This document shows positions 435 through 62,423 of a stretch of 64,000 bases of DNA, piece after piece. The notes beneath the pieces were generated by a model. That model saw only the letters and a list, made by a program, of their open reading frames with translations, ran no database searches and had not been told where the DNA came from. Location: NCBI GenBank assembly GCA_029939505.1, contig JAOZSV010000005.1:477-64476 (forward strand), written 5' to 3'. Both the position numbers and the translations under genes were made by a program. Every line of letters starts with the position of its first letter. The stretch's first letter is position 1. The stretch comes from Thiotrichaceae bacterium. GTDB lineage: Bacteria; Pseudomonadota; Gammaproteobacteria; Beggiatoales; Beggiatoaceae.

Positions 435-602
435 AATGAACATGTATTTTTTCGGGAACATTTCTTAACTAATTACAGGTACTGAAACTCCTAACAACTA
501 TTAATTAAATGGGGGTTGGCAGGTTTCCAAACCACTTGAGCCGATTTTTTGGATGGTGTTTTAGTTGTTCCTATTTTACTAGCGATTAACCAACTGATAT
601 TA

Positions 603-8147: not shown

Positions 8148-8159
8148 TTTAAGAAAACT

Positions 8160-13721: not shown

Positions 13722-13744
13722 TCGCAAGAACTATCAATCTAATC

Positions 13745-19327: not shown

Positions 19328-19328
19328 C

Positions 19329-31700: not shown

Positions 31701-34409
31701 CAAATACCGCAAATTCAGACGAAGGAAATGATACCCCATGAATCTTATTGGCTGGAAAAGTTCGCTGATTATATGCCGGTTTTAGATTTACCAACTGCTC
31801 GTCCTCGCCCACCGGTAAATACCTATCAAGGTAGCCGGCAAACAGTACGACTTGATGGTGAGCTATGCCGTGATCTCAAGAAGCAAAGTCAAAAACACGG
31901 TTGTACCCTATTTATGATGCTCATGTCCGTTTATACGACTTTACTTCACCGCTTGACAGGGCAGGATGATATCGTTGTGGGCATTCCAGTTTTAGGACGG
32001 CCTGAAGGGGGTGACAAGCTTGTTGGTTATTGTACCCATTTATTGCCCATAATGAGTTCTTTTGATAAAAGACAAAGCTTCTCGGCCTATCTGAAAGTGA
32101 TGCGAAGTACTTTACTAGACGCTTACGAGCATCAAGACTACCCCTTCGCAAACTTAATCAACAAGTTAAATATAGCCAGAAATGCCAACCAAACACCACT
32201 GGTATCGGCACTTTTTAACCTAGATCGGCCGGTTGCAATCCCACCTATGTTTAATTTGGAAACTAGCTGGTTTTCTCAACCTATCAGTTTCATAGCATTT
32301 GATATTGTCTTCAATATCACTGAAATAAGCGATGAATTGGTGGTGGATTGTGATTACGACACCGATGTGTTGGATAAAGCGACTATTGAGCGGTGGCTTG
32401 AACATTTCCAAACGTTGTTGAAAGGAGTCGTGGTCAACTCTGAACAACAGGTTTCCCAATTGCCTCTGCTGAGTGAGCAAGAACGCCATAAAATATTGGT
32501 CGAGTGGAACAATACGTCGGTAGATTATCCAAAGAATAAGACTCTCCATCAATTATTTGAAGAACAGGTGGAGAAAACGCCAGAAAACATTGCGGTCGTC
32601 TTTGAAGAGCAACAATTAACTTACTTTCAATTAAATCAAAAAGCCAATCAATTGGCTCATTATTTACAATCTCTTGGTGTCAAACCCGATGTGTTGGTGG
32701 GGATTTGTTTGGAACGTTCTTTGGAGATGGTTATTGGGCTTTTTGGCATTTTGAAAGCTGGGGGTGCTTATGTGCCACTTGATCCGGCTTATCCGGTGGC
32801 GCGTTTGGCGTTTATGTTGGAAGATTCCCAAGTGCCGGTGTTGTTGACTCAATCCAACTTAATTGATGTGTTACCAGAAACGATGGCACAGCTCGTTTGC
32901 TTAGATACTGAGGCCAAAAAATTCTCACCATTTCGTTCGGAGAATCCTTTAAGTGTGGTAGGGCCCGAAAATTTAGCTTATGTGATTTATACGTCGGGGT
33001 CAACTGGGAAACCGAAAGGCGCGGGTGTTTTTCATCAAGGCGTTACAAATCTAGTCAATTGGTTTATAACCGCATTTCAGCTAGGGGTTGATGATAATGT
33101 TCTCATCATTTCCCCATTTAGCTTTGATTTGACCCAGAAAAATATTTTCGCACCGCTTATCAATGGGGGCCAATTGCACCTATTAGCTTCTACACACTAT
33201 GATCCGAACCAAATTACCAAACTCGTTGCAGAAAAAACGATAACTTGGCTTAATTGCACACCAAGTGCGTTTTATCCTCTTATAGAGCCAAATGATGAAA
33301 ATACATTTCTTAAGTTATCGTCATTGCGCTATTTATTTTTAGGGGGGGAACCTATTGCATTACCCATACTACAATCATGGCTAAACGCCACAGTTTCTCA
33401 AACGAAAATTGTCAACAGCTATGGTCCCACCGAATGCACAGATGTTTGTGCTGCGTATTTATTGGAACAACCTGAGGCCGTTTTAGACCAAACGATACCC
33501 ATAGGTAAGCCTATCTTTAATGCCAAGCTCTTTAATCTAGACAAAAATTTTGAGCTATTACCGGTTGGAGTGGCGGGCGAACTCCACATTGGTGGCGTAG
33601 GTTTAGCTCGCGGCTATCTCAACCGCCCCGACTTGACGGCCGAAAAATTCCTCAAAAATCCCTTTAGCGATGACCCCTATTCACGCCTCTACAAAACTGG
33701 AGACTTAGCCCGCTATCTGCCCGATGGCAACATAGAATACTTAGGTCGCATAGATAACCAGGTTAAAATTCGTGGTTTTCGTATAGAACTGGGCGAAATC
33801 GAAGTTATTTTGACAGAGCACCCGCAGATACGAGAGGCTGTAGTTATAGATCGTGAAGATTCATCTCATTTGAAACAATTGGTAGCCTATATTGTTACTC
33901 CTCCGGGAACGCCCTCATTGGCTGCTAGTGATTTACGCCGATTTCTTCAAGAAAAATTGCCAGAATATATGGTGCCTTCAAATTTTATAGTGCTTGAAAA
34001 AATACCACTTACTCTCAATGGTAAAATAGATCGTCATGCATTGCCGGCACCCTCTGGGAATGAACTAAAAGCGGCTTATGTTGCGCCACGAACGCCTATA
34101 GAAGAACTACTGACAAACGTTTGGAGTGATGTATTAGAACAGCAAAAAATTAGCATCCATGACGATTTTTTTGAACGAGGGGGACATTCCCTGCTAGGTA
34201 CCCAAGTTATTTCCCGAATCCGTGATCTGTTTTCGGTAGAAATATCCTTACGTCAATTATATGAATCACCTACGGTGGTTAGTTTAGCCGAGTCTCTCGT
34301 CAAACAGGAAACTCAACCTGGCCGAATTGAAAAAATTGCTAGATTACGCCAAAGGCTTGACAAAATGTCTGCCAATGAAATTAAAACGCTTCTTCAAAAC
34401 AAAAGGTGA
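28779..34409 (+). CDS. Hybrid PKS/NRPS: ACP, PLP aminotransferase, C-A-PCP
   Basis: 1876-aa ORF.
- N-terminal carrier: LEMGANSLTLME (Ser codon 28950-28952), followed by a long polar linker.
- Aminotransferase (GSA/class-III type): FSNSGTEAVMSALRLAR, EGSYHGH, FDEMITGFR, Lys in ATYGKVIGGG (30498-30500).
- C domain: HHIVVDGFS, starting at 31569.
- A domain: LAYVIYTSGSTGKPKG, NSYGPTE, YKTGDL, GRIDNQVKIRGFRIELGEIE, NGKIDR. The 10-residue code read by eye is DLKNFGSDVK, which I do not recognise.
- PCP: FFERGGHSLL. Confidence 0.93.
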   Translation: MNDAASVTVSDFPVEVSPETGRRTEIISTLCSQMADLLATIPSEEEIHVPFLEMGANSLTLMEIIRTIDNTFSLKVVMRQFFEELTNIDALATYIDQNLPPEGSSTSGQSESEVRPQVKPISTESNMNETITEEAITETSALELTSRLVEKTSSEFKQPNNLNDMLSSGEEASALEQILKQQLELASQGMSQVVSQQLEFLRHSGFSTKPLSSSGPDVHQTTSQTVDFQARPLPVADAYQATRKLTPEKIQAVADVSSTLTNKPKKKSTSQKSGGTTPPHLLKATEVRARGLTPQQQCHLEALIARYTKRTQKSKQMTQTHRAVLADSRASVGFRFTTKEMLYPIIGKRAQGTKIWDIDDNEYIDITMGFGVNLFGHHPPFISKAIKEQPNDTIQLGPRSPEVGEVAELIAELTGMERIAFSNSGTEAVMSALRLARAATGRTKIVLFEGSYHGHSDGTLVAPPIQDGMPGSMPAAPGIPQYIANDIIVLEYGTPQTLELIRTHAHELAAVLVEPVQSRHPDLQPKAFLHELRQLTKSAGIALIFDEMITGFRIHPGGAQAWFGVEADLATYGKVIGGGMPIGVIAGKAAYMDGIDGGMWQYDDASYPQKERTMFGGTFCQHPLAMTTALATLKHLKTHSPALQERLNQRTTQFAETLNAYFEENKVPIQVAHFSSIFHFEFSGNMELLFYHLLEKGVYIWEWRNCFLSSAHTDADIEYIIQAIKESCEELRSGGFLPAHSKSEKGLENVSGITKSQDKDSITELSSKEDQEGNQVELTSRKDVTSIPTVSKASSKQPDKLPLTEAQRQLWVLSQIGQEGSLAYNVYTTLQLQGPFQLLAMCQAVQKVVEQHEALRTIISHNGDFQQILPELKIDIPVLDFSTTSDEGQSEVNAWFISESQKPFNLNQGPLFRASILKLEEQHHLLVLTAHHIVVDGFSIGIVLQEITSFYSAECQGTKTQLDSPMQFSEYVQWQIPQIQTKEMIPHESYWLEKFADYMPVLDLPTARPRPPVNTYQGSRQTVRLDGELCRDLKKQSQKHGCTLFMMLMSVYTTLLHRLTGQDDIVVGIPVLGRPEGGDKLVGYCTHLLPIMSSFDKRQSFSAYLKVMRSTLLDAYEHQDYPFANLINKLNIARNANQTPLVSALFNLDRPVAIPPMFNLETSWFSQPISFIAFDIVFNITEISDELVVDCDYDTDVLDKATIERWLEHFQTLLKGVVVNSEQQVSQLPLLSEQERHKILVEWNNTSVDYPKNKTLHQLFEEQVEKTPENIAVVFEEQQLTYFQLNQKANQLAHYLQSLGVKPDVLVGICLERSLEMVIGLFGILKAGGAYVPLDPAYPVARLAFMLEDSQVPVLLTQSNLIDVLPETMAQLVCLDTEAKKFSPFRSENPLSVVGPENLAYVIYTSGSTGKPKGAGVFHQGVTNLVNWFITAFQLGVDDNVLIISPFSFDLTQKNIFAPLINGGQLHLLASTHYDPNQITKLVAEKTITWLNCTPSAFYPLIEPNDENTFLKLSSLRYLFLGGEPIALPILQSWLNATVSQTKIVNSYGPTECTDVCAAYLLEQPEAVLDQTIPIGKPIFNAKLFNLDKNFELLPVGVAGELHIGGVGLARGYLNRPDLTAEKFLKNPFSDDPYSRLYKTGDLARYLPDGNIEYLGRIDNQVKIRGFRIELGEIEVILTEHPQIREAVVIDREDSSHLKQLVAYIVTPPGTPSLAASDLRRFLQEKLPEYMVPSNFIVLEKIPLTLNGKIDRHALPAPSGNELKAAYVAPRTPIEELLTNVWSDVLEQQKISIHDDFFERGGHSLLGTQVISRIRDLFSVEISLRQLYESPTVVSLAESLVKQETQPGRIEKIARLRQRLDKMSANEIKTLLQNKR
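29650..30990 (+). other. Aminotransferase (AMT) domain embedded in the assembly line; approximate bounds
   Basis: N-terminal extension LTPQQQCHLEALIARYTKRTQKSKQ, then glutamate-1-semialdehyde-aminomutase-like motifs including the PLP lysine at 30498-30500. The same placement (carrier then AMT then C) is known from mycosubtilin/iturin-type and microcystin McyE-type modules. Confidence 0.85.
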
Positions 34410-34419
34410 ATGACTACTA

Positions 34420-37400
34420 ATGACTACTATGGAAAAAACTGATTTAGCGAAAGATGAATTACTAGCACTCTTGTTGGAAGAAGAGGAAGGGCTAAATGTT
34501 CTGGAAGAGGAAGGGCTGAACGTTTATACCGGGCAAGAAGAAATCGTCGCACGGGACAAAACGGTTGGTGAACCCTCACCGGAAAAAACCGAGTTAGTGA
34601 AAGAGGAACTATTAGCACTCTTTTTGGAAGAAGAGGGGCTGGACGTTTCGACTGGAAAAGAGATTATAGCACGCGATAAAACGGTTGGTGAATTACCACT
34701 GTCTTTCGCTCAACAACGTCTTTGGTTTTTAGATCAGCTAATTCCGGAAAGTCCTGCCTATAATATTCCTGTAGCCGTGCGTCTTACAGGTATGCTTAGG
34801 ATAGCCGTGTTGGAACAAACTTTTACTGATATTGTCCGACGCCATGAAGTTTTGCGTACTACTTTTACTGTGGGGCAAGATGACCAACCAGTGCAAATCA
34901 TTGAAACGTCAGATTTAACGATATCGTTGCCAATTATTGATTTACAAGCATTATCTCCAGTAGAACAGCCTAGTGAAATACAGCGTTTAGCGATTGAAGA
35001 GGCTAATCGCCCCTTTGATCTTGTTAAAGGTCCTTTGCTAAGATTAACATTGTTACAGCTAAGTACTGAAACTTATGTGTTGCTTTTAACTATGCACCAC
35101 GTTATATCAGATGGATGGTCAATAGCAATATTTATCCAAGAGGTAGCTGCCCTCTATGAAGCCTTTTCAAAAGGGAAACCTTCCCCTCTATCAGCCTTAC
35201 CTATTCAGTATGCTGATTTTGCGATTTGGCAACGTAAGTGGCTTGAGGAGGAGGGTGTTTTAGAAACCCAAATTAACTATTGGAAGCAACAATTAGCTGG
35301 GGCACCACTGGTATTGGAACTCCCAACTGATCATCCACGCCCGGCTATTCAGAGTTTTAAAGGTAATATCGAAAAATTTGAAATCAATGAGGAACTTACA
35401 AGGCAATTGAACACGCTGAGTCAGCAATCAGGAACAAGTTTTTTTATGACCTTACTAGCAGCCTTTGTGGTTTTGCTTTCCCGTTACAGTAGCCAGAAAG
35501 ATATTGTGATCGGTTCTCCTATTGCCAACCGTAATCGTAGTGAAACGGAATTTTTGATTGGTTTTTTTGTCAATACTCTTTTGATGCGTATAACTTTGTC
35601 TGAAAAGATGACTTTTCGCGATTTGTTAATGCAAACCAAACAAGTCGCCTTAGAAGCCTACGATCACCAAGATATACCATTTGAACAATTAGTAGAAACT
35701 TTGCAACCAGCACGTAACTTGAGCCATTCACCACTATTCCAAGTGATGTTTGCTTTGCAGAATGCGCCCACACGGCCATTGGAAATGTTGGATTTGAACC
35801 TTGAAGTATTGGAAGTAGAAACGACCCTCTCAAAATTTGATCTGACTCTGGATATTGAAGAAAGTGACTCAGTACTCAAGGGCACTTTTGAATATAATAC
35901 TGATTTGTTTGAAGTGGCTACCATTATCCGTATGATAGAACATTTTAAAACATTATTGGCCAGCATTATAGCTCATCCTGAGTGTCAAGTGACCCAATTG
36001 CCACTATTGAATCAAACCGAAAAAGACCAGTTATTGAATAAATGGAATGAGACCCAAGTATCGTACTTACGAGAAGAACAGTGTTTCCCTCAGTTGTTTG
36101 AAGCTCAAGTTGAGCGGACTCCGACCGCAGTGGCAGTGGTATTTCAAGACCAACAAATCACCTATCAAGATTTAAATACGCGGGCCAATCAACTGGCGTA
36201 CTATCTGCAAACATTAGGTGTTCAATCCGAAACGCTCGTTGGCCTCTGTGTCGAACGCTCTTTAGAAATGATCATAGGACTATTAGGTATTTTAAAAGCC
36301 GGGGGGAGTTATATACCCTTAGATCCCAATTTTCCTAAAGAACGCTTGGCTTTCATGTTGGAAGATGCTCAGGTAACGGTCCTGTTAACTCAAGAAAAGT
36401 TAGCGAGGTGGTTTAATGAATATCAAGTACAAGCCGTTTGCTTAGATAAAGATTGGGATAAAATAGCTCAAGAAAACTGGACAAATCCGATTAGTGATTT
36501 AAACAAAAATCACTTAGCATACACTATCTATACATCCGGCTCAACTGGTAAACCAAAAGGCGTACAAATTCAACACCAATCATTAACGAATTTTTTATAT
36601 GCTATTGGTAAACAATTTGATATAAATGAGCAGGACATTCTTCTAGCAGTCACAACTATTTCTTTTGATATTGCTGCATTGGAGCTTTATTTACCACTGA
36701 TAGTTGGAGCCAAAATAATCTTAGCCAATCGTGAAGAATCTTCAGATGGAATCCTGTTATTGGAAAAACTGAATCAGGCAGGCGTGACAGTCATGCAAGC
36801 GACCCCGGCGACGTGGCATTTATTACTTGCGGCTGGCTGGCAAAAGAGCCATCAATTAAAAATTCTTTGCGGTGGTGAAGCTTTACCTTGTGAACTCGCT
36901 AAACAACTACTGGCAAGAGGTCAATCTGTTTGGAACTTATACGGGCCAACTGAAACGACTATCTGGTCTACTCTCTACTTGGTAAAAGAACCGCAAACGA
37001 CTACTCTAGAAGTGCCTGAATTGATAGGTCGTCCTATTAACAACACTCAAGTCTATATTTTAGATGCTCATTTACAATTAGTGCCTATTGGTGTTCATGG
37101 TGAACTCCATATTGGTGGCAAGGGTTTAGCTCGTGGCTATAAGGATCGCCCAGAATTAACGACCGAAAAATTTATCAAGAATCCCTTTAGCGATGATCCC
37201 TATTCACGCCTCTACAAAACTGGTGACTTAACTCGCTATCGACCGGATGGTAATATTGAATACTTGGGCCGCATAGATAACCAGGTTAAAATTCGTGGTT
37301 TTCGGATAGAACTGGGCGAAATCGAAGCGGTATTGGGACAACATGTTCAAGAGAATGCGGTTATTGTCCATGAAACCTCGGCAACGGACAAACGTTTAGT

Positions 37401-40400
37401 CGCCTATATCGTGCCGCATCAAGAGCAAACCCTTGAAAATACAGAATTACGTGCGTTCTTGAAAGAACGGCTGCCCGATTACATGGTTCCATCGGCCTTG
37501 GTTACCTTAGATGCCCTGCCACTCACGCCCAACGGTAAGATAGACCGTCGTGCCTTATCGAGGTTATCAGTAAGCCATGAGCGTTCAGAAGAACAATTTG
37601 TGGCTCCTCGGACCCCAGAAGAGGAACTGTTAGCCGGTATTTTCGCTGAGGTGTTGAGTGCCCCACAAGTCGGTGTCCATGACAATTTCTTTGAACTGGG
37701 CGGCCATTCTCTGCTCGCCACCCAAGTCATGTCACGAATTCGTGACACCTTTGAAGTTGAACTGCCATTGCGTGAATTGTTTGAATCACCGACGATAGGG
37801 GGGTTGAGTGAGCTTTTAAGCACAAAGTGCCGTTCCGCTGCTACGTTACCACCAGTCACACTTGTTGATCGGGAACAACCGTTATCGTTATCTTTTGCCC
37901 AACAGCGTTTATGGTTCTTAAACCAACTGGAGGGTGAAAGTGCGACTTACAATATACCAGTCACACTACGTCTTGAAGGGCCGCTTCACCAAAATGCCCT
38001 GCTCATGAGTTTACAAACCCTCATACAACGTCATGAGAACTTACGAACCGTTTTTCCAACACAAAAAGGGCAACCTGTCGTTCAAATAGTCGAAAAGCCA
38101 TTCCAATTAAGTGTTTTGGATTTAAGCACTTTATCGCTTGTTCTACAACAATCGGAAGTACAACGGTTGGTAAACGAGTATGCTAATCGTCCATTTAATT
38201 TGGAAACGGGGCCATTATTCCGTGCCACTTTGCTGCAATTGGGTAGCAAATCATACGTGTTGTTGTTAAACATGCATCATATCATTGCTGATGGTTGGTC
38301 ACTCTGGGTTTTGCTTCAAGAATTGAGTGTCCTATATGAGGCTTTTTTACTTGAGATCACTTCTCCCTTGCCACCGTTATCAATTCAATATGTTGATTTT
38401 GCTCACTGGCAACGGCAATGGCTCACAGGAGAAGTGCTTGAACAACAACTTTCTTATTGGAAACAACAATTAGTTGGGGTACCGACGTTACTAGAACTGC
38501 CAACTGATCAACCGCGTTCCCCAATACAAAGTTATCAAGGAGCGAATTTACCTTTTTCTCTATCGCCGAAACTGACGGAACAACTCCAACACCTGAGTCA
38601 ACAAGCCGGCACCACCCTTTTTATGACTTTGCTAGCCGCTTTTGCTACCTTATTGTCTCGCTACAGTGGCCAAAGCGATATTGTTATTGGTTCGCCCATC
38701 GCTAATCGTACCCATAGCTTTCTTGAATCCATGATTGGCTTGTTTGTCAATACGCTAGTGTTACGCCTGAGCTTTGAAGACAATCCGCCCTTTATTGATG
38801 TTTTGCAACAAGCACGAAAAGTAACATTAGAAGCGTATGATCATCAAGATATTCCTTTTGAACAGTTAGTTGAGGAACTACAACCAGAACGTTCCCTAAG
38901 TCACTCGCCGCTATTTCAAGTGATGTTTGATTTACAGAGTGTTGAGATGCCTATGGAATTAGCAGAACTGACTGTAACGCCTGTCGAAGTGGAAAGCACT
39001 ATTGCTAAATTTGATCTGACATTGTCAATGGAAGAAACGGCTCAAGGTTTGATTGGGATTTTTGAATACAGCACTGATTTATTTGAACTGGCTACGATAG
39101 AGCGTTTGAAAGGGCATTTTTTAACCTTACTTACGAGCATGGTAGAAAATCCACAGCAGTTAATTCATGAATTACCTTTGCTGACAGAGGCCGAACAACA
39201 ACAATTTTTGGCTTGGAACAAGACGACTGTCGATTATCCTCTTGACAAAACCATTGCCGATTTATTTGAAGAACAAGTTGAACAAACCCCCAATGCTGTT
39301 GCGGTAGTATTTAAAGAGCAACAACTGACCTATAAAAAATTAAATACAAAAGCCAATAAAATTGCACACTATCTGCGTCGCAGTATCATGCGTAATGAAT
39401 TTGTGGGTATTTTAGAAGAGCGTGGTATTGATTTCCTTGCCGCTATGCTTGGCATCCTGAAAGCCGGCGGGGCTTTTTTGCCAATTGATCCGAGTTATCC
39501 CGATGATCGGGTACTGTATATGGTGAACAATAGCCAAATTCATTCCCTAATTACTCGTAGCACATTATTTGCCAAAATTGCTACCGATGTAGAAAAAAGC
39601 GGTTATTTGCGTCAGGTGTTGTACCTTGATGGTGCAAAAGAACTTGGGGAGGGATACCAATTCTATAACAGTACTGAACTTGCCGGCGAACCTAAACACA
39701 ACCCAAGCTGCCTTAATGAATCTATAGATATTGCCTACATGTTATATACATCCGGTTCTACTGGTTTACCAAAAGGGGCAATGGTGAGACACAATGGTGC
39801 GGTCAATCATATTTATGCTCAATTTGACCAATTAGCTTTCCATCAAAACACCGCTTTTTTGCAAAGTGCATCGTCATCGTCAGATATTTCCGTATGGCAA
39901 TTTCTGGCCCCGCTACTCATCGGTGGACGGACTATCATCGTTGATTTTGAGACGGTCTGTGATTCAGCCAAGTTATTTCAGGTCATTAAATCACAACAAG
40001 TCACTTTGATTGAATTGGTACCCGTTGTCATGCAGGGTGTTCTTGAACTGGTTGCACAATTACCACCAGAAGAACAGGCACTACCAGCATTAGAGTGGGC
40101 CATGGTGACGGGTGAGGCAGTTTCAACATCACTTGTTAATCAATGGCTACAAACTTATCCTAATATTAAATTGGTAAATGCTTATGGACCAACTGAAGCC
40201 GCTGATGATATTTGTCAAGCAGTATTAGACAAACCGCTTCCCAAAGAACAAATCAATGTCCCTATTGGTAAACCTTTGGCAAACTTGAGTCTTTATGTAT
40301 TGGATCCGCAGCAACAATTGTTACCTATTGGACTATACGGAGAGATATGCGTGGCGGGTGTTGGCGTGGGTACTGGTTATTGGCGTGATGAAAAGAAAAC

Positions 40401-43400
40401 CAAAGCCAGCTTTGTCAATAATCCTCATGCCAATGACACATATAATAGCGTGATTTATCGAACTGGCGATTTAGGTCGTTGGTTACCAGATGGTTCGTTG
40501 GAATTTATTGGACGGCTTGATGATCAAGTCAAGATTCGTGGTTTCCGCATTGAGTTGGGCGAAATTGAAGCAGTCTTGGGACAATATCCACTGATAGCAC
40601 AAAATTCCGTTATTGTCAAGGAAACATCTCAAACAGATAAACGTTTAGTGGCTTATTTGGTGCCAAATAAAGAACAAGTCCTTGAAAATACAGCATTACG
40701 CACTTTTTTGGAAGAACGATTACCTGTTCATATGATACCATCGGCCTTTATCACGTTAGAAGCTTTGCCACTGACACCTAATGGAAAAGTAGATCGCCGT
40801 GCTTTAGCGAAGTTATCAGTTAGCTATGACCATTTAGAAGAACAATTCATGGCCCCGCGAACCCCGGAAGAGGAATTGTTAGCCACTATTTGGGCTGAGG
40901 TATTAGATGTCTCGCAAGTCGGTGTCCATGATAATTTCTTTGAACTAGGTGGCCATTCTTTACTAGCCACGCAGGTGATATCACGGATCCGTGACACGTT
41001 TGAACTTGAACTTCCCGTGCGCGTATTATTTGAATCGCCAACGATACAAACCCTAAGCGAACACCTTGGAAACGTCCGTCGGGAATCTGCTTTACCACCA
41101 ATAACTCTTGTGAATCGGAACGAGCCATTACCGTTATCTTTTGCCCAACTGCGTTTATGGTTCTTAAACCAACTGGAGGGCAACAGTGCAACTTATAATA
41201 TACCAGCCGCACTACGTCTTGAGGGGCCGCTTCACCAAAATCCCCTTCTCAGAAGTTTACAAACTCTGGTACAGCGTCACGAAAATTTACGAACCGTTTT
41301 CCCAACGTTAAAGGGACAACCTGTTATTAAAATTGTCGATAAGCCTTTCCAAGTAAATACTCTTTCTTTAACGGCCTTATCGCTTGAAAAACAACAACTA
41401 GAAGTACAACGGCTGGTGAACAGCGATGCCAATCGTCCTTTTGACTTAGAAATAGGGCCGTTATTCCGTGCCACCTTGCTTCAACTAAGTGCCGAGTCAC
41501 ACATTTTGTTGTTAAATATGCATCATATCATTTCGGATGATTGGTCCCTTGGTGTTTTGATTCGGGAGTGGCGTGTTCTTTATGAAGCATTTGTGCAAGA
41601 TCAAGCTTCGCCCTTACCACCATTGCCAATCCAATATGTTGACTTTGCTCACTGGCAACGACAATGGTTACGCGATGATGTGCTTGAAAAACAAATCGAT
41701 TATTGGAAACAACAATTGGCTGGTGCCCCGGCATTACTGGGATTGCCGACTGACCATCCACGCCCACCCGTGCAGCGTTTCCAAGGTACGAGTTTACCGA
41801 TTTTCTTCTCAAAAGAATTGTCCGAACAACTGAAACACCTAAGTCAGCAAAGTGGAACGACCCTGTTTATAACACTATTGTCGGCTTTTGCTACTTTATT
41901 ATCTCGCTACAGTGGTCAAAACGATATTGTCATTGGATCGCCTATCGCTAACCGTACTCATAGTCAAACGGAATCCTTGATTGGTTTTTTCGTCAATACA
42001 CTGGTATTACGCCTTAATTTGTCTGATAATCCGCCTTTTGAGACGCTTTTGCAACAAGCTCGACGAGTCGCACTAGAGGCTTACACTCATCAAGATATTC
42101 CTTTTGAGCAGTTGGTTGAGAAACTGCAACCTGCCAGAGATATCAGTCACTCGCCACTGTTCCAAGTGATGTTAGTGTTACAGAATGCACCTCAATCAAG
42201 TTTGGAATTGTCGGGGCTGACTTTAACCCCATTAGAAATGGAAAGCACTATTGCTAAATTTGATCTGACGTTATCAATAGAAGAAACAGATCAAGGAATC
42301 ATGGGTGAATTGAATTATAACACTGATTTATTTGAAGCGACAACAATAGAACGCTTGAGAGAGCATTTATATACTTTACTCACTGGCTTAGTGGCTAATC
42401 CGCAGCAACCGATTCACGAATTACCTTTGCTCACTGAGGCCGAACAAAAACAATTATTGGCTTGGAACGACACCGCCACAGATTATCCGCATGACAAGAC
42501 CATTGTCGACTTGTTTGAAGAACAAGTTGAACAAACCCCTGATGCCGTTGCTGTGATATTTGAAGATCAACAACTGACTTACCAAGATTTAAATAGTAAA
42601 GCCAATCAACTGGCCCATTACATACAAGATTTAGGCGTAAAACCGGAAGTACTGGTGGGGATTTATGTCGAGCGTTCTCCTGAGATGATCATTGGATTGT
42701 TAGGTATTCTCAAGGCTGGTGGTGCTTATGTGCCATTTGATCCGGTTTACCCGACTGCACGTTTGACGTTTATGTTAGAGGATACGAAAGTATTGGTGTT
42801 GTTGACTCAATCAAGTTTAATAGAGAAATTACCAAAAACTCAGGCGCAAGTGGTTTGTTTAGATGTGGAAGCAGATGCACTCTCACATTTAAGTGCGAAA
42901 AATCCCACCAGTGGAGTGGTACCAACTAATTTGGCTTATGTGATTTATACATCGGGTTCGACAGGTCAGCCAAAGGGTGTGATGATTGAGCATTTATCGG
43001 TTATCAATCTCTTGAACGGATTGTATCAAACCCTCTATACTCACTATAAAAATTCCCAACTTCGCGTGAGCATGAATGGGGCGTTAACATTTGATACTTC
43101 AGTGAAACAACTGATTCAACTTTTGCATGGTCATGTTCTTGATATTATACCCGAAGAAGTTCGATTCAATAAGGAAGCCTTATTAGCTTATTTACAAGCA
43201 CATCAAATCAATGTGTTTGACTGTACTCCCTCACATTTGAACTTATTTTTTTCTAAGGAGCTACTCCCCAATACGAGTTCAGTACTTCATTCTATCATCA
43301 TTGGTGGTGAACCTCTTGATGATTTGACTTGGCAATTTTTGCAGAAAACTGAAAAAACTTCCTTTTACAATATTTATGGTCCCACAGAATGCACGGTTGA

Positions 43401-53213: not shown

Positions 53214-53443
53214 TACCAATTTGCATTCTCTGAAGTACTAAGTTCTGAAGCATAAGTTTTATTACTTTTTGGAGTCCAAAGCTGATGCGAAGGCAATAAA
53301 CAATTTTGTAACTGCCTACGCTTACGCTTTGGACTCCAAAATATCAGATAATTTGTGCTTCAGTACTTAAATAGAAGCCTAATAAACCAAGTTTCTTAAA
53401 GAAACTTTGTTTTTTAATACTTCTTGGAACGCCAATTGGTATC
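53214..53443. repeat. Roughly 230-nt multi-tier palindromic element (long imperfect hairpin)
   Basis: Four nested inverted-repeat tiers read directly:
- ATACCAATT 53214-53222 with AATTGGTAT 53435-53443.
- TAAGTTCTGAAGCA 53240-53253 with TGCTTCAGTACTTA 53357-53370 (13/14).
- TTGGAGTCCAAAGC 53270-53283 with GCTTTGGACTCCAA 53327-53340 (14/14).
- GCGAAGGCA 53288-53296 with TGCCTACGC 53314-53322 (8/9). Confidence 0.8.
53390..53416 (+). terminator. Candidate intrinsic terminator (AT-rich stem plus T-run)
   Basis: AAGTTTCTT (53390-53398), A, AAGAAACTT (53400-53408), followed by TGTTTTTTAA. The stem is AT-rich and lies inside the right arm of the larger palindromic element, so its function is uncertain. 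Confidence 0.3.
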
Positions 53444-53541: not shown

Positions 53542-54789
53542 ATGTTAGAGATATTCCAACAACAAGAATCTGAAGTCCGTTATTATTCACGAGCCTTCCC
53601 GACTCTTTTTACCACAGCCAAAGAGGCCTATCTTTACGATACGCAGGGCAAACAGTACATTGATTTTCTCAGTGGGGCGGGTACCATGAATTATGGTCAC
53701 AACAATGCTTTGATGAAACAGGCTATTATCGACTATTTACAAGCTGATGGCGTGGTTCATAGTTTGGATATGGCAACGAAAGCCAAGCAACAATTTTTGG
53801 AACAATTTGAGTCTGTTATCCTGAAACCGCGTGGTTTGGATTATAAAATTCAGTTTCCAGGGCCAACCGGTACTAATGCCGTTGAAGCTGCCCTGAAATT
53901 GGCCAGAAAAATAAAAAAGCGATCCAATGTGATCGCTTTTACCAATAGTTTTCATGGCCTATCAACCGGCGCTTTGTCTGTTACTGGTAATGCCTTCTAT
54001 CGTCACGAAGCGTTTGTTAATCGATTAAACGTGTCATTTGTACCTTATGATGACTATTTTGGAAAAAGCGTTAATACGATTGACTATATCAAACGATTTA
54101 TTGAAGACAGCAACAGTGGTGTTGATTTACCTGCTGCTATGATTTTAGAAACAGTCCAAGCCGATGGAGGAATTAATGTTGCGACAGTGTCGTGGCTACA
54201 ACAATTGGAGCAAATTTGTCGAAAGTTTGATATCTTACTGATTGTCGATGATATTCAGGTTGGCAATGGGCGAACAGGGCAGTTTTTTAGCTTTGAGCGT
54301 GCGAATATTCAACCGGATATTGTCACATTGTCAAAGTCTATCGGTGGGTTTGGTTTACCCTTGTCTCTGGTGTTGATAAAACCAGCATTGGATCAATGGC
54401 AACCCGGTGAGCATACAGGTACATTTCGAGGTAATAATCTTGCGCTAGTGACGGCAACAGAGGCCCTTCATTATTGGAAAACTGACAATTTTTCTGATTC
54501 TATCAAACTCAAAAGCCAAATTCTTGAAAAAACGTTACAGGGTATTTTAGCACACTATCCGAAACTTAACGCACAAGTGAGAGGCATTGGTTTGATTTAT
54601 GGGTTAGAGATTTCTGTGCCAGAAATTGCACAGGCCATTGCTCGCGAAGCGTTCAATCAAGGATTGCTCATAGAACGGTGCGGGGCAAAGGATAATGTTT
54701 TAAAGTTTCTGCCGCCTTTAGTCATTGAAGATGAGGTGCTCAAAGCGGGTTTGGAAATAATGGAGCAAAGTATTAAATCAGTCGTCTGA
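53542..54789 (+). CDS. L-2,4-diaminobutyrate:2-oxoglutarate transaminase (EctB/Dat/PvdH family)
   Basis: 415-aa ORF. ESEVRYYSRAFPTLFTTAKEAYLYDTQGKQYIDFLSGAGTMNYGHNN, PGPTGTNAVEAALKLAR, DDIQVGNGRTGQFFSFE and TLSKSIGGFGLP (PLP Lys) match my memory of EctB almost motif for motif. No other ectoine genes (ectA, ectC) are present. Confidence 0.85.
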   Translation: MLEIFQQQESEVRYYSRAFPTLFTTAKEAYLYDTQGKQYIDFLSGAGTMNYGHNNALMKQAIIDYLQADGVVHSLDMATKAKQQFLEQFESVILKPRGLDYKIQFPGPTGTNAVEAALKLARKIKKRSNVIAFTNSFHGLSTGALSVTGNAFYRHEAFVNRLNVSFVPYDDYFGKSVNTIDYIKRFIEDSNSGVDLPAAMILETVQADGGINVATVSWLQQLEQICRKFDILLIVDDIQVGNGRTGQFFSFERANIQPDIVTLSKSIGGFGLPLSLVLIKPALDQWQPGEHTGTFRGNNLALVTATEALHYWKTDNFSDSIKLKSQILEKTLQGILAHYPKLNAQVRGIGLIYGLEISVPEIAQAIAREAFNQGLLIERCGAKDNVLKFLPPLVIEDEVLKAGLEIMEQSIKSVV

Positions 54790-54851: not shown

Positions 54852-55706
54852 ATGGAAATACAAACCGTTGGTGTTATCGGAGCCGGCGTGATGGGAGTTG
54901 GTGTCGCGCAAAATCTGGCTCAAACCGGGCATCAAGTTGTCCTCATTGATATTTCGGAAGATATTTTGGCGCATGCCAAACAAGAAATTAAGAACAACAT
55001 CCGTTTTCAAGGTTTCATGAAGAAAAGTGTTGAGGATCCGGAAAACACTTTGCAGAAAATTACCTTTACCACCGACTACCAATTACTCAATAAGGCCGAC
55101 TTTGTGGTTGAAAATGTGGTAGAAAAGTGGGACATCAAAAAAGATGTCTACGCAAAAATTGATGCAATATGTCCAGAACATTGCATCTTTGCGGCCAATA
55201 CATCCGCCATTTCCATTACACGTATTGGCTCTGCCACTAAACGGCCCGCTAAAGTGATTGGTATGCACTTTATGAATCCGGTGCCGATGAAAAAAACGGT
55301 TGAAACCATTCGCGGCTACCATACTTCTGATGAAACGATTGAAACCTCAAAACGGTTTCTGGCTCAAATGGGTAAGGATTGTATTCTTGTGAATGATTCT
55401 CCCGGTTTTGTCGCAAACCGGTTGTCTCACCTTTTCATGAACGAAGCTGCAAATCTCGTTATGGAAAATATTGCTGATCCGAAAGACATTGATGAAATTT
55501 TCAAAAAATGTTACGGACATACAATGGGGCCTTTGGAAACTGCTGATTTAATCGGACTTGATACGGTTGTCGAGACTCTGCAAGTCTTGTATGAGAGTTA
55601 TCAGGATTCTAAATTCCGCTGTTCTCCGTTATTGACAAAAATGGTTGATGCCGGCTTGTATGGTCGTAAAAGTGGTCAAGGTTTTTACACTTATCAACGG
55701 GTGTAA
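54852..55706 (+). CDS. 3-hydroxyacyl-CoA dehydrogenase family protein (FkbK/ZmaG-like)
   Basis: The track ORF starts at 54816. ATG 54852 is preferred because AAGGAG lies at 54841-54846. Rossmann N-terminus VGVIGAGVMGVGVAQNLAQTGHQVVLIDIS, plus HFMNPVP and SPGFVANR motifs typical of 3-hydroxybutyryl/acyl-CoA dehydrogenases. Confidence 0.85.
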   Translation: MEIQTVGVIGAGVMGVGVAQNLAQTGHQVVLIDISEDILAHAKQEIKNNIRFQGFMKKSVEDPENTLQKITFTTDYQLLNKADFVVENVVEKWDIKKDVYAKIDAICPEHCIFAANTSAISITRIGSATKRPAKVIGMHFMNPVPMKKTVETIRGYHTSDETIETSKRFLAQMGKDCILVNDSPGFVANRLSHLFMNEAANLVMENIADPKDIDEIFKKCYGHTMGPLETADLIGLDTVVETLQVLYESYQDSKFRCSPLLTKMVDAGLYGRKSGQGFYTYQRV

Positions 55707-55730
55707 TTGTACTCCCTTACAACTGCAATG

Positions 55731-55768
55731 AGTGTGACCTCAATTTACATCAAACGGGAGGTCACACT
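55731..55768. repeat. Intergenic hairpin (11-bp perfect stem, 16-nt loop)
   Basis: AGTGTGACCTC (55731-55741) pairs with GAGGTCACACT (55758-55768), and imperfect pairing extends outwards to about 55725-55774. It lies between the dehydrogenase stop and the carrier-protein start. No T-run follows. Confidence 0.6.
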
Positions 55769-55819
55769 TACTGCAATAACTTAAATATTGCGTTTAACTC
55801 GAACTTAAAAGGTAATTAC

Positions 55820-56056
55820 ATGACCACAGATGAAATTCTGGAAAAAACGAAGTCGTTTCTGGCTCAATTTATCAATGTCAACGTGGCGGATGATGAAGAA
55901 CTCTTCGCGTCAGGTTTAGTAAATTCGCTGTTTGCTATGCAACTGGTGTTGTTTATCGAAAAAGAATTTTCCATCAAGGTTGAAAACGAAGATCTTGATT
56001 ATGATAATTTCAGAACCTTGAACGCGATTGTTGGCTTTATTGAAAAAAAAATCTGA
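55820..56056 (+). CDS. Discrete acyl carrier protein (FkbJ/ZmaD-like)
   Basis: 78-aa ORF of carrier-protein size, with the candidate phosphopantetheine Ser in SGLVNSLFAMQLVLFIEKEF. It is embedded between the two dehydrogenase genes, as in (meth)oxymalonyl-ACP cassettes. Confidence 0.75.
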   Translation: MTTDEILEKTKSFLAQFINVNVADDEELFASGLVNSLFAMQLVLFIEKEFSIKVENEDLDYDNFRTLNAIVGFIEKKI

Positions 56057-56065
56057 GAAATACCT

Positions 56066-56088
56066 CCGAGGTTTTCAAAACCTCGGAA
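56066..56088. repeat. Short palindrome TCCGAGGTTTT-C-AAAACCTCGGA directly after the ACP stop codon
   Basis: Read directly, 10 nt after the TGA at 56054-56056. It shares the CGAGG...CCTCG core with the larger palindromes at 60983 and 62818. No T-run follows, so it is not a canonical terminator. Confidence 0.6.
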
Positions 56089-56115
56089 GTCTAGCTCATA
56101 AAAAATGGAGAAAAA

Positions 56116-57288
56116 ATGGAAATTGAACTAACCCCTCAACAAGTACAGGAACAGGACATTTTCAGAGCTTTTGTTTCTGAAGAGATTGCACCTTATGCGG
56201 ATCAATATGATCAAGACGAATGTACGCCCGATGAGGTGATTAAAAAACTCGCGGAGATTGGCTATTTAGGTGCGATAATCCCTAAAGAACATGGTGGACA
56301 GGGGATGGATGCGATCACCTTTGGCCTTCTGTGTGAGGAAATTGGGCGAGGTAGTGCTTCGTTGCTAAGTTTGTTAACTGTTCATGGCATGGTTTGTCAG
56401 GCGATTCTTAAATGGGGGAGTGCTTCTCAAAAAGCAAGTTGGCTCCCTAAATTAGCCACAGGTGAAGCTATCGGGGCTTTTGGTTTAACCGAACCCAATA
56501 TCGGTAGTGATGCTAAAAATGTCGAAAGCACTGCGCTTTATTCCAATAATTCGTATGTTTTAACGGGTGAAAAGAAATGGATTTCTTTTGGACAGCTTGC
56601 CAACTTATTTTTAATTATTGCCCAATGTGATGGCAAACCATCGGCTTTCCTTGTTGAAAGAAATACACCGGGTTTTTCCACCGCTCCAATTACTGGATTG
56701 TTGGGATTTAGATCGGCGATGTTAGCCAAAGTGCATCTGAACAAGTGCCAAGTTCCAGAAGAAAATTTGGTTGGCAAAGTAGGTTTCGGGTTTTCCCATG
56801 TTGCCGGTGCTGCCTTGGATCATGGTCGATATTGTGTGGGTTGGGGTTGTCTGGGACTGGCTCAAGCTTGTTTGAATGCCTGTCTCAGTTACACGAGTGA
56901 GCGAAAACAGTTTGGCTCGTTTTTAAAAGGACACCAGCTAATTCAGCAAATGATAGCGGAGATGATTACTAACATCAAAGCGGCAAGGTTGCTTTGTTAT
57001 CATGCTGGTTATCTGAAAGACAAGGGTGATCCGTCACTAATTATGGAAACTTCGATAGCTAAATATTTTGCTTCTCGAATGGTAAGCAAAGTGGCGGATG
57101 ATGCGGTGCAAATTCACGGTGCTAATGGTTGCAGCAGTGACTACCCAGTGCAAAGGTATCTGCGAGATGCTAAAATCATGGAAATCATCGAAGGCAGCAC
57201 TCAGATGCAACAAATCATCATAGCCAAATCTGGTTATCATAGTTTTGCGTTAGAGAAAAGAAAAGCCCGACAAAAGGAGAAAACATGA
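56116..57288 (+). CDS. Acyl-CoA dehydrogenase family protein (FkbI/ZmaE-like)
   Basis: 390-aa ORF with GGAG upstream of the ATG. Motifs: GLTEPNIGSDA, KKWISFG, and C-terminal HGANGCSSDYPVQRYLRDAKIMEIIEGSTQMQQIIIAK, typical of the ACAD fold. Confidence 0.85.
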   Translation: MEIELTPQQVQEQDIFRAFVSEEIAPYADQYDQDECTPDEVIKKLAEIGYLGAIIPKEHGGQGMDAITFGLLCEEIGRGSASLLSLLTVHGMVCQAILKWGSASQKASWLPKLATGEAIGAFGLTEPNIGSDAKNVESTALYSNNSYVLTGEKKWISFGQLANLFLIIAQCDGKPSAFLVERNTPGFSTAPITGLLGFRSAMLAKVHLNKCQVPEENLVGKVGFGFSHVAGAALDHGRYCVGWGCLGLAQACLNACLSYTSERKQFGSFLKGHQLIQQMIAEMITNIKAARLLCYHAGYLKDKGDPSLIMETSIAKYFASRMVSKVADDAVQIHGANGCSSDYPVQRYLRDAKIMEIIEGSTQMQQIIIAKSGYHSFALEKRKARQKEKT

Positions 57289-58337
57289 CAACTGAAAGTT
57301 CTCCCCAAAAAAGCGAGCAGAAGGTCAAATGCGTCGTTTGGGATTTGGATAACACATTATGGGATGGAGTATTGTTGGAAAGTGATCAGGTTTCTCTACG
57401 TGATGGAGTAACGGACATTATTAAAACGCTGGACAAGCGTGGTATTTTGCAATCAACTGCTAGTAAAAATGAATATGACCATGCCATGACACAACTTAAG
57501 GCGTTTGGTTTGTCAGAGTACTTTATATATCCGCAAATTAATTGGAATTCCAAAGCGCAAAATATTGAGACGATTGCCAGAAAAATCAATATAGGTATTG
57601 ACACTTTTGCCTTTATTGACGATCAACCTTTTGAACGGGAAGAAGTTAATTTTTCACAGCCGGACGTGCTTTGTATTGATGCGGCGGATATTGATAAATT
57701 ACTAGATATGCCGGAAATGAATCCTCGTTTTATCACAGACGATTCCTCCAAACGGCGGTTAATGTATATCAGCGATATAGAGCGTGACAATATAGAAGAG
57801 AATTTTGTCGGCCCGAAAGAAAATTTCCTGGCCACCCTCAATATGGTATTAACCATTGCACCGGCACAGGAAGATGATTTAAAACGGGCCGAAGAATTAA
57901 CGGTACGCACCCATCAATTGAATACCACTGGGGATACTTACTCTTATGAAGAATTGGATCATTTTCGTCAGTCTGATCAGCACATCTTATTGGTTGCCAG
58001 CCTTAACGACAAATATGGAACATACGGCAAAATTGGTTTGACGCTGATAGAATGTAATGAGGATGTGTGGACAATCAAACTCTTGTTAATGTCCTGTCGC
58101 GTCATGTCAAGAGGTGTTGGCAGTGTGATGATTAATCACCTCAGAAATGAAGCGAGAAAAAACAATGTTCGTCTGCAAGCGGAATTCATCTCCAACGACA
58201 GAAATCGGATGATGTATATGACGTATAAATTCGCCCATTTTAAGGAAAAGGAAAAAATCAACGACCGAGTCATTTTAGAAAATGATTTAAGTCAAGTTCA
58301 AAAATTTCCAGAATATTTAACGGTTAATATTTTTTAA
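57285..58337 (+). CDS. FkbH-like HAD-phosphatase/glyceryl-transferase protein
   Basis: 350-aa ORF. Its ATG overlaps the upstream stop (ATGA at 57285-57288), and AAGGAGA lies upstream. Motifs: KCVVWDLDNTLWDGVL (HAD DxDxT), FIDDQPFEREEV, and LLLMSCRVMSRGVGS (conserved Cys region of FkbH-family proteins). Confidence 0.85.
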   Translation: MTTESSPQKSEQKVKCVVWDLDNTLWDGVLLESDQVSLRDGVTDIIKTLDKRGILQSTASKNEYDHAMTQLKAFGLSEYFIYPQINWNSKAQNIETIARKINIGIDTFAFIDDQPFEREEVNFSQPDVLCIDAADIDKLLDMPEMNPRFITDDSSKRRLMYISDIERDNIEENFVGPKENFLATLNMVLTIAPAQEDDLKRAEELTVRTHQLNTTGDTYSYEELDHFRQSDQHILLVASLNDKYGTYGKIGLTLIECNEDVWTIKLLLMSCRVMSRGVGSVMINHLRNEARKNNVRLQAEFISNDRNRMMYMTYKFAHFKEKEKINDRVILENDLSQVQKFPEYLTVNIF

Positions 58338-58422: not shown

Positions 58423-58518
58423 TAGACTTGTCCCTTAATAAGTAAGCGTAAACCCTTGAAAATACTAAATATAAAAACGATATGAATCAATAACTTAGCT
58501 TATTAAGGGACAAGTCTA
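58423..58518. repeat. Perfect 20-bp inverted repeat with 56-nt spacer
   Basis: TAGACTTGTCCCTTAATAAG (58423-58442) and CTTATTAAGGGACAAGTCTA (58499-58518), read directly. A separate small hairpin, GCGAACA-TAAG-TGTTCGC, lies at 58527-58544. Confidence 0.8.
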
Positions 58519-60705: not shown

Positions 60706-60755
60706 GCGATTTCCAGAAAACAAAGTACCGCTGTCAAGGTAAAATACTCTCTTAT

Positions 60756-60902
60756 CAGCAATTCTAATAGTCTGTAACTATTTGATTTTACAGCTAAAAA
60801 AATTACAATTTTTCCTAAAATCGTCTGATTTAGGAGTGAAAATGGGTGATTGATTGATTTAAGTGATTGATTTAAAAGTGTTTGAGACAATTAGAATTGC
60901 TG
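60756..60902. mobile_element. 147-bp MITE-like element with 13-bp perfect terminal inverted repeats and a 10-bp target-site duplication
   Basis: TIRs are CAGCAATTCTAAT (60756-60768) and ATTAGAATTGCTG (60890-60902). The flanking direct repeats ACTCTCTTAT lie at 60746-60755 and 60903-60912. There is no credible ORF inside. Confidence 0.7.
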
Positions 60903-60982
60903 ACTCTCTTATCCACTTACAGCAATAAGATAAGGAGTTGATTTTGAGTGAATCTAAGGTGATTTCCTGAAAAAAATATACC

Positions 60983-61026
60983 TTCGAGGCTAAAGTTTTT
61001 TCTTTAAAAAAAACTTTAGCCTCGAA
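60983..61026. repeat. Perfect 19-bp-stem palindrome TTCGAGGCTAAAGTTTTTT / AAAAAACTTTAGCCTCGAA
   Basis: Arms at 60983-61001 and 61008-61026, loop CTTTAA. Same termini and T-run/A-run centre as the palindrome at 62818-62858. Confidence 0.8.
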
Positions 61027-61077
61027 AATAATGCGCCACGACGGTTGCGGTTAAATAAAATACCCACAAATCATAAC

Positions 61078-62260: not shown

Positions 62261-62358
62261 TAGTTCTTCGCAGATGAAAAGGTATTTTTAAAAAAATCAT
62301 ATGTTATAACCTACATTTCGCAGTTATAAAATCGAAAAAATTAAATTGATATTAGTTG

Positions 62359-62386: not shown

Positions 62387-62423
62387 TAAGTACCAAATTA
62401 TTAGTCTAATAGAATAAGGAAAA

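Follow-up and report, generated by a model that had tools for sequence, protein, structure and literature searches.

The window analyzed here is a stretch of 64,000 nucleotides from contig JAOZSV010000005.1 of a Thiotrichaceae bacterium (assembly GCA_029939505.1, positions 477 to 64,476 of the forward strand). It carries eight megasynthase genes, named O1 to O8, followed by a four-gene cassette (Table 1), which is predicted to make hydroxymalonyl-ACP, an extender unit bound to an acyl carrier protein (ACP), for this assembly line. Two divergent acyltransferases (ATs), one at the C-terminus of O5 and one in O8, probably both load this unit, a full model that is held with less certainty than the role of the cassette itself. 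The evidence also tips, if only slightly, towards a wider reading. In this reading the unit is used twice in one assembly line, once in a split module made of a ketosynthase (KS), a dead AT (AT0), a ZmaA-like AT and, on the next protein, an ACP and an aminotransferase. The 2-hydroxyl group of this module would then arise by the choice of the extender and not by an oxygenase, and the dead AT, the ZmaA-like AT and the cassette would form a conserved sub-cluster that has spread horizontally.

The initial annotation of this region had described a 3-hydroxyacyl-CoA-dehydrogenase-like (3HCDH-like) gene, a gene for a 78-residue carrier protein, an acyl-CoA-dehydrogenase-like (ACAD-like) gene and an FkbH-like gene. 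This order was recovered with all four genes on the forward strand, and the families were confirmed by Pfam and TIGR01686, the latter giving 276.9 bits for the FkbH-type protein at a cut-off of 146.65. The proposed translational coupling of the last two genes agrees with their overlap as ATGA (57285-57288). For the 3HCDH-like gene the longest open reading frame (ORF) begins at position 54816, and the ATG at 54852 has an AAGGAG ribosome-binding site. The start at 54852 is considered correct because of this site and because of the 284-residue call in the source record and in relatives. The catalytic-region residues of the 3HCDH-like protein are kept in 66 cassette homologues, the attachment serine of the carrier protein (Ser36) is conserved to at least 98% among 77 homologues, and the glutamate of the motif IIEGS is conserved in the alignment of the ACAD-like protein with its cassette homologues. 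The FkbH-type protein shows the motifs DLDNTLW (aa 20-26) and SCRVMSRG (aa 270-277) named in the initial annotation. Its residues D20, D22 and T24 of the HAD motif, D112, D113 and the cysteine C271 (LMSCRVM) are invariant in an alignment of 27 sequences, comprising the protein of the window and 26 homologues from Proteobacteria, Cyanobacteria, Acidobacteriota, Chloroflexota and Streptomyces. No part of the cassette is missing, and it appears to be functional.

By homology, the FkbH-type protein would take a glycerate unit from 1,3-bisphosphoglycerate and place it on Ser36 of the free ACP. The 3HCDH-like and then the ACAD-like enzyme would oxidize C3 of the glyceryl-ACP in two steps to give hydroxymalonyl-ACP, and no O-methylation would follow. 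Neither a methyltransferase gene nor a methyltransferase domain was found by Pfam in any ORF of at least 150 amino acids in the window, including the eight megasynthases. A free-standing AT was also not found, as a tblastn search of the window with both AT types gave seven AT-like segments, all of them within megasynthase ORFs. Both negatives cover the window, and the source contig runs 7.7 kb further upstream. Beside the cassette of the closest relatives no methyltransferase is present either. On these grounds the cassette is assigned to the version that lacks an O-methyltransferase (OMT), and the pathway is expected to stop at hydroxymalonyl-ACP, as proposed initially.

The seven AT-like segments comprise four canonical ATs with GHSVG and HAFH motifs (O1 to O4), two ATs with a GYSxG motif (O5 and O8) and one dead AT (O5). 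The canonical ATs are 64-69% identical to one another and come nearest to the malonyl-specific AT of CurL; they are predicted malonyl types, as had been assumed before. The AT of O4, for example, matches CurL at 464 bits vs. 212 bits for ZmaA. Identity amounts to 65% between the two GYSxG ATs and to about 40% between these and the canonical ATs. Among proteins of solved structure, both match the AT of ZmaA (4QBU) best, with 271.7 bits for O5 (next 5YDA with 241, CurL with 200.2) and 291.5 bits for O8 (next 5YDA with 229, CurL with 194.5). ZmaA is the cis-AT of the zwittermicin pathway for which specificity for hydroxymalonyl-ACP has been proven biochemically, and ZmaF is the corresponding AT for aminomalonyl-ACP (PMC4207774). 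GYSxG is common to these two ACP-dependent ATs (GYSFG in ZmaA, GYSLG in ZmaF), whereas CoA-dependent malonyl ATs have GHSxG (PMC4207774, Table 2). Furthermore, hydrophobic residues occupy the 'RXR' triad for carrier recognition in ZmaA and ZmaF (PMC4207774). The residue equivalent to R190 of FabD is Leu or Val in the two GYSxG ATs and Lys in the four canonical ATs, and the triads of the former read L-H-R and V-C-R, compared with M-C-M in ZmaA. The best matches, the GYSxG motif and the residue at the FabD-R190 position support the earlier proposal of the two GYSxG ATs as candidates for the use of hydroxymalonyl-ACP.

Several observations weigh against this assignment or against the model built on it. 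Both GYSxG ATs are only 41-43% identical to ZmaA, which is about the same as their identity to the canonical ATs of the cluster. In both, an Arg is retained at the third position of the 'RXR' triad, and both retain HAFH, the usual malonyl marker, where ZmaA has GAAH (PMC4207774). FkbI is not the nearest relative of the ACAD-like protein, which matches FkbI (1R2J) at 177 bits and generic acyl-CoA dehydrogenases at up to 275 bits; the designation of this protein as an FkbI orthologue rests on synteny for this reason. In the AT-seeded survey described below, no cassette is visible in 49 of the 79 loci, many of them on short contigs, and proximity to a cassette is no proof that every such AT takes up the unit. 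The motifs alone are ambiguous, because GYSxG and a hydrophobic first triad residue occur together with the retained Arg and HAFH. In the present analysis HAFH was first read as a sign of malonyl specificity in the divergent ATs. This reading was down-weighted, as most cassette-adjacent ATs of the GYSxG clade have HAFH, namely 20 out of 32 from cassette-carrying loci. HAFH is the norm among cassette-linked ATs of this clade and is thus not evidence against the use of hydroxymalonyl-ACP.

The genomic neighborhood was surveyed in both directions. In the forward survey, 185,579 species-representative genomes were searched with the signature of the GYSxG-clade ATs as the only query and the best 79 of 369 relatives were examined; 30 of these 79 loci have cassette genes at a distance of at most 10 kb from the AT, even with many contigs being short. 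In the reverse survey, 80 metagenome loci were retrieved by the FkbH signature alone. An AT is within reach in 24 of them, and in 17 of these 24 it is of the GYSxG-clade type. Moreover, the ATs adjoining the cassette in other loci mostly share the A/V/L-x-R...HAFH signature of the window. Taken together, the AT clade is tightly linked to the cassette. The gene order of the window was found in all related loci showing the four genes, except for one in which the FkbH gene lies upstream (L070).

Two recurring contexts were distinguished. The first consists of a KS, about 3 kb, an AT, the cassette and then an ACP-aminotransferase protein with condensation (C) and adenylation (A) domains. Here, the cassette directly follows the KS-AT0-AT gene in seven genomes, and the ACP-aminotransferase gene is next in the five whose contig continues, which are a Thiotrichaceae metagenome-assembled genome (MAG; L005/L011), Algibacillus agarilyticus (L018), a Sulfuricellaceae MAG (L026), Thalassomonas sp. 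RHCl1 (L032) and Propionivibrio (L034). In the other two the contig ends after the cassette (L047, L063). The second context, a C-A-KS-AT arrangement with a ketoreductase (KR) adjoining the cassette, occurs in 14 loci, for example in Scytonema hofmanni UTEX 2349, Nostoc sp. KVJ20, Tolypothrix and Calothrix, with only the KS-AT-KR part visible on cut contigs. The window unites both contexts, the first in O5/O6 and the second in O8, around one cassette. The sub-cluster of dead AT, ZmaA-like AT and cassette was seen in Thiotrichales, Alteromonadales, Nitrosomonadales/Rhodocyclales, Desulfobacterales and Magnetococcales.

The dead AT of O5 was not mentioned in the initial annotation, so that the aminotransferase module has to be described as containing a dead AT as well as a ZmaA-like AT. 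According to alignment and Pfam, the remnant is placed behind the KS and ahead of the ZmaA-like AT. In it, GHSVG is changed to GNGVG, about 80 amino acids of the small subdomain including the histidine of HAFH are deleted, and Pfam covers only positions 2-131 of the 319 profile positions. The ZmaA-like AT behind it carries its own copy of the KS-AT linker. Four full-length protein homologues and 12 related loci show the same KS-AT0-AT layout, which is kept across several bacterial orders (layout noted for L005, L006, L008, L009, L011, L018, L019, L026, L032, L034, L047, L063 and L074). In the related loci the nucleophile motif of AT0 reads GHGVG, GGSVG, GWNGG, GAGVG, GEGVA, GWGIG, GVAGG or GCGVG; the nucleophile serine or its partner histidine is gone and the small subdomain is deleted. 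It seems that an ancestral malonyl AT was retained as a scaffold and that a ZmaA-like AT was added behind it.

These data bear on which of the two modules uses the unit. The initial annotation had required that one of the cis-ATs accepts hydroxymalonyl-ACP. Its uptake by a cis-AT is supported, but the evidence favors both divergent ATs and not one alone; that both take the unit from the cassette ACP follows from the AT family and the gene neighborhood and stays a prediction. It is unlikely that only the terminal module of O8 uses the unit and that the ZmaA-like AT of O5 loads malonate, which would give a 3-amino acid without a 2-hydroxyl group. The known precedents are all of the type amino acid plus hydroxymalonyl plus KR (PMC4894447, PMC4207774), the AT of O5 retains HAFH, and in the window the cassette adjoins O8 and is 26 kb away from O5. 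However, the cassette lies directly behind the KS-AT0-AT gene in the seven genomes of the first context, followed by the ACP-aminotransferase gene in five, and the ATs of O5 and O8 are closely similar and share the same signature. In addition, replacing a canonical malonyl AT by another malonyl AT while keeping the dead copy would have no obvious purpose. Furthermore, the Candidatus Parabeggiatoa relatives with a 93%-identical FkbH carry the cassette and a diaminobutyrate transaminase beside a non-ribosomal peptide synthetase (NRPS) that ends with A and thioesterase (TE) domains, and no terminal polyketide synthase (PKS) module is found within the 6.7 kb visible. This indicates that the cassette is kept without a module of the O8 type.

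The same relatives and the HAFH motif of the O8 AT speak for the opposite and quite improbable case that only the aminotransferase module uses the unit and that the AT of O8 loads malonate, giving a statine-like 4-amino-3-hydroxy acid. This is opposed by the 14 loci of the second context, in which the cassette stands directly beside the KS-AT-KR genes, preceded by C-A where the contig allows, and by the O8 AT being nearer to ZmaA than the O5 AT is. Loading of hydroxymalonyl-ACP by both ATs is hence retained as the preferred reading.

Methylation of the unit to methoxymalonyl-ACP by a methyltransferase encoded outside the window, whether in the upstream 7.7 kb or in another part of the genome, is very improbable. 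The upstream continuation of the contig beyond the window does count for it and against the pathway proposed here, and a Methyltransf_23 gene is located between the AT gene and the NRPS of the related cluster L006. Nevertheless, genes of the FkbG type are normally located within the cassette, and both the 64 kb of the window and the surroundings of the cassette in the closest relatives are free of methyltransferases. The OMT-less four-gene module is also the commoner form, occurring in 73 biosynthetic gene clusters (BGCs) vs. 28 for the five-gene methoxymalonyl module (PMC6395733). The lack of an OMT and of a trans-AT, which had been emphasized initially, is therefore true of the window but not unusual, and ZmaA likewise is a cis-AT that accepts hydroxymalonyl-ACP (PMC4207774). 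Least probable is that the cassette is a relic or serves another pathway while all active ATs load malonyl-CoA, since insertion sequence (IS) elements just downstream and the existence of some FkbH cassettes without a PKS within 10 kb stand against four intact genes with conserved catalytic residues, synteny with the megasynthases and the diaminobutyrate transaminase in relatives, and a strong two-way association with the GYSxG AT clade.

From the preferred reading a product can be predicted. Starting with a substrate loaded by a fatty acyl-AMP ligase (FAAL), three modules with KS, AT, dehydratase (DH) and KR domains and one with KS, AT and KR domains would build a chain with a conjugated triene and a 5-hydroxyl group. 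The ZmaA-like AT of O5 would then load the N-terminal ACP of O6, and condensation would give a 2-hydroxy-3-ketoacyl-ACP, whose 3-keto group would be turned into an amine by the aminotransferase domain. The fatty acid is thus predicted as a 3-amino-2,5-dihydroxy-6,8,10-trienoic acid. An oxygenase or monooxygenase domain was found by Pfam neither in O6, where aa 1-345 comprise only the ACP, nor in any other megasynthase; therefore, no alternative source of the 2-hydroxyl group is seen in O6. In O8, hydroxymalonyl-ACP would extend the last amino acid, and reduction by the KR would give a 4-amino-2,3-dihydroxy acid before release by the TE. The initial annotation had listed a 2-hydroxy-3-amino acid from the aminotransferase module and a 2,3-dihydroxy-4-amino acid from the terminal module as alternatives; both structures are supported as predictions, although as parts of one product. 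This product would be a lipopeptide with five amino acids between the two units derived from hydroxymalonyl-ACP.

For the five A domains, specificity codes (Stachelhaus codes) were read out by means of a GrsA fragment, which reproduces the published code DAWTIAAICK. They read DLKNFGSVCK (O6), DILAICLIWK, DIWEMTAICK and DT-DIIIVDK (O7, modules 1 to 3) and DALWLGGTFK (O8). Tentatively, we take O7 module 1 to be Gly-like, O7 module 2 to be similar to 2,4-diaminobutyrate (Dab) codes and O8 to be Val-like. The Dab-like code of O7 module 2 (A domain about aa 1640-2150) fits the gene for an EctB-type transaminase between O8 and the cassette, which is probably the supplier of Dab for one NRPS module. 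Hence, the peptide probably contains 2,4-diaminobutyrate.

Table 1. Features of the window (coordinates of the 64,000-nucleotide stretch; megasynthase domains according to Pfam).
Feature	Position	Strand	Description
O1	549-8147	+	FAAL-ACP-KS-AT-DH-KR-ACP
O2	8160-13721	+	KS-AT-DH-KR-ACP
O3	13745-19327	+	KS-AT-DH-KR-ACP
O4	19329-24305	+	KS-AT-KR-ACP
Canonical ATs of the O1-O4 block (549..24305)	4254-5219, 9891-10865, 15431-16414, 21045-22028	+	tblastn coordinates
O5	24311-28702	+	KS, two AT-like regions, without ACP
Degenerate AT remnant of O5	26030..26830	+	AT0
ZmaA-like cis-AT of O5	27605..28699	+	GYSLG, HAFH; serves aminotransferase module
O6	28779..34409	+	ACP (aa 29-95), class-III aminotransferase (aa 344-703), C-A-PCP (peptidyl carrier protein)
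O7	34420..44319	+	three C-A-PCP modules
O8	44298-53159	+	docking domain, C-A-PCP-KS-AT-KR-ACP-TE
ZmaA-like cis-AT of O8	49284..50363	+	GYSIG, HAFH; terminal module
EctB-type diaminobutyrate-2-oxoglutarate transaminase	53542..54789	+	TIGR02407, 658.7 bits
3HCDH-like protein	54852..55706	+	FkbK/ZmaG role; Pfam 3HCDH_N and 3HCDH; 284 aa
Discrete carrier protein	55820..56056	+	FkbJ/ZmaD role; 78 aa; Pfam PP-binding, E 9e-7
ACAD-like protein	56116..57288	+	FkbI/ZmaE role; all four ACAD Pfam domains
FkbH-type glyceryl transferase/phosphatase	57285..58337	+	TIGR01686
Downstream region	58621-64000		heavy-metal-type P-type ATPase, frameshifted IS630 transposase (61141-61623 and 61681-62250), DDE_Tnp_1 transposase
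Inverted repeats	53239-53369, 55724-55775, 56054-56098, 58423-58518		intergenic gaps around the cassette

According to the ORF list and the Pfam scans, the window is almost wholly occupied by one biosynthetic cluster on the forward strand. O5 has no ACP, and O6 completes the module begun by O5. The attachment serine of the free ACP stands in the context VNSL instead of the usual DSL. An Asn before the attachment Ser was also observed in the ACP of O6 (ANSL, aa 54-59), which comes after the ZmaA-like AT; in the remaining PKS ACPs of the cluster this position is occupied by Asp (DSL). A homologue of the EctB-type transaminase adjoins the cassette in the Parabeggiatoa relatives, too.

Downstream of the cassette, the cluster ends at the P-type ATPase gene, behind which lie the IS630 transposase and then the DDE_Tnp_1 transposase, which continues past the end of the window. 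As transposases follow its downstream end, the cluster may be located in a mobile or rearranged region. In addition, inverted repeats were observed in every intergenic gap around the cassette, among them one with arms of 57 nt and 79% complementarity and one perfect 20-nt pair with a distance of 56 nt. Terminators, sites of RNA processing and small repeat elements are possible explanations. Promoter and terminator scans were uninformative, with promoter-like sites at chance level.

The closest homologues of the FkbH-type protein are from Candidatus Parabeggiatoa (93% identity) and Thioploca (76%), and the species-representative MAG of Candidatus Parabeggiatoa sp. nov. 1 has the same ATs at 96% identity. 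The source belongs to the Beggiatoaceae and stands near Candidatus Parabeggiatoa. The GC content and the combination of Dab and hydroxymalonyl genes had suggested the paenilamicin cluster of Paenibacillus larvae or the amicoumacin cluster of Bacillus; both were rejected on account of these nearest FkbH homologues.

Apart from the two contexts, the surveys gave several further arrangements. An aminotransferase module is combined with a second module containing a GYS-type AT in L009 (Pseudomonadota MAG115) and L025 (a Chloroflexia MAG), so that a double use as predicted for the window would not be unique. Three to five consecutive KS-AT-KR modules, all with a GYS-type AT, were found in L033, L035, L036, L066, L073, L078 and L082 (Chloroflexota, Acidobacteriota and other MAGs), followed in L036 by the cassette. 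If all of these ATs load hydroxymalonyl-ACP, chains hydroxylated on every carbon would result. In L061, L068 (Streptomyces pulveraceus), L083, L085 and L086 a GYS-type AT without an upstream KS immediately precedes the cassette, behind which KS-AT-C-A is found; this AT resembles a trans form of the GYSxG ATs that stands free of a module. Five metagenome contigs (L108, L145, L156, L157 and L161) carry the four-gene cassette although neither a PKS nor an NRPS domain is detectable in the flanking 7.5-10 kb or so. The cassette may also serve pathways other than assembly lines. Finally, the cluster L006 from a 'Planctomycetes' MAG (GCA_024223955.1) has a homologue of O5 with 75% identity. Between its KS-AT0-AT gene and NRPS (L006 14279-18697), it contains genes for a GT28/EryCIII-like glycosyltransferase, a separate aminotransferase without ACP and the Methyltransf_23 protein. 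Homologues of this glycosyltransferase and methyltransferase were not found in the 64-kb window.

Hydroxymalonyl-ACP is a rare extender unit that puts a free hydroxyl group on the alpha-carbon of a polyketide, which is useful as a chemical handle and for bioactivity. Engineering its use needs ATs that recognize an ACP-bound substrate, and the AT of ZmaA is the main studied example of these. The survey defines a large uncharacterized clade of such candidates, with 369 relatives in species-representative genomes, which has GYSxG, a hydrophobic residue at the FabD-R190 position and usually HAFH as its signature. The ATs of this clade recur in the two module contexts. If the use of the unit in the aminotransferase module is true, it would open a second biosynthetic way to the 3-amino-2-hydroxy acids, which form the pharmacophore of protease inhibitors of the bestatin and microginin type. 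It would also be a natural case in which an AT is replaced by inserting a new one behind the old, inactive copy, and this would be instructive for PKS engineering. In addition, large sulfur bacteria, whose secondary metabolism has been little studied, gain a concrete predicted product. The parts most worth following are the conserved aminotransferase module with its dead AT and ZmaA-like AT and the size of the AT clade.

The route to hydroxymalonyl-ACP has been summarized for FK520, zwittermicin and others (PMC3679948, PMC6395733). Zwittermicin and amicoumacin already provide examples of the OMT-less module and of uptake of the unit by a cis-AT, and the cassette itself is therefore ordinary. 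The zwittermicin A cluster of Bacillus cereus (ZmaN/ZmaD/ZmaG/ZmaE) has the same four enzyme families, no O-methylation and a GYSxG cis-AT that takes the unit from a free ACP (PMC4207774). However, the gene order differs, and the YASH motif is GAAH in ZmaA and HAFH here. Zwittermicin synthesis also uses aminomalonyl-ACP with the trans-AT ZmaF, a type that is absent from the window, and it has neither an aminotransferase module nor a fatty acyl start, both of which are present in the window. Module 3 of the amicoumacin/xenocoumacin pathway (AmiI, with the ami genes for hydroxymalonyl-ACP) is an NRPS-PKS hybrid in which an amino acid is elongated by hydroxymalonyl-ACP, yielding a 4-amino-2,3-dihydroxy acid (PMC4894447, Fig. 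3 legend). O8 would follow the same logic, although the amicoumacin module is internal and uses Asn, whereas O8 is terminal with a TE and presumably has a Val-like code. The methoxymalonyl-ACP sub-cluster of FK520 and bafilomycin (FkbG/H/I/J/K) shares the chemistry up to hydroxymalonyl-ACP (PMC3679948), and the N-terminal FkbH motif KC(L/V)VWDLDNTLW is identical. In contrast to the window it includes the O-methyltransferase FkbG, and the ACAD-like protein of the window is no nearer to FkbI than ordinary acyl-CoA dehydrogenases are.

The overall layout resembles synthetases of the puwainaphycin and iturin type, which share the FAAL start, a PKS module followed by an aminotransferase domain and a C domain, and the TE at the end (PMC4219810). 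All of these parts were detected in the window by Pfam, with an in-line class-III aminotransferase. The 2-hydroxyl group of the 3-amino-2-hydroxy acid of puwainaphycin is ascribed to the monooxygenase domain of PuwE (PMC4219810); in the window, the AT0-AT pair and the cassette are found instead. Closest in predicted chemistry is anabaenolysin A from Anabaena, which contains a conjugated-triene 3-amino-2-hydroxy fatty acid and a lactonised 4-amino-2,3-dihydroxy acid, AOFHA (PMC3400675), so that both kinds of units predicted here occur in one compound. Anabaenolysins comprise four residues compared with seven predicted units here, and the abl cluster is reported to start with an ACP, a starter C domain and an A domain for Asp without a FAAL (PMC10088813), while the cluster of the window starts with a FAAL. 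In the searchable literature, which did not cover the primary account of the abl cluster, no description of the KS-AT0-AT layout with the cassette in an aminotransferase module was found. Likewise, nothing relevant was found there on the use of hydroxymalonyl-ACP in connection with an aminotransferase domain, a FAAL, a lipopeptide or paenilamicin. Compared with these known systems, the use of the cassette in an aminotransferase module is possibly the new part of the cluster.

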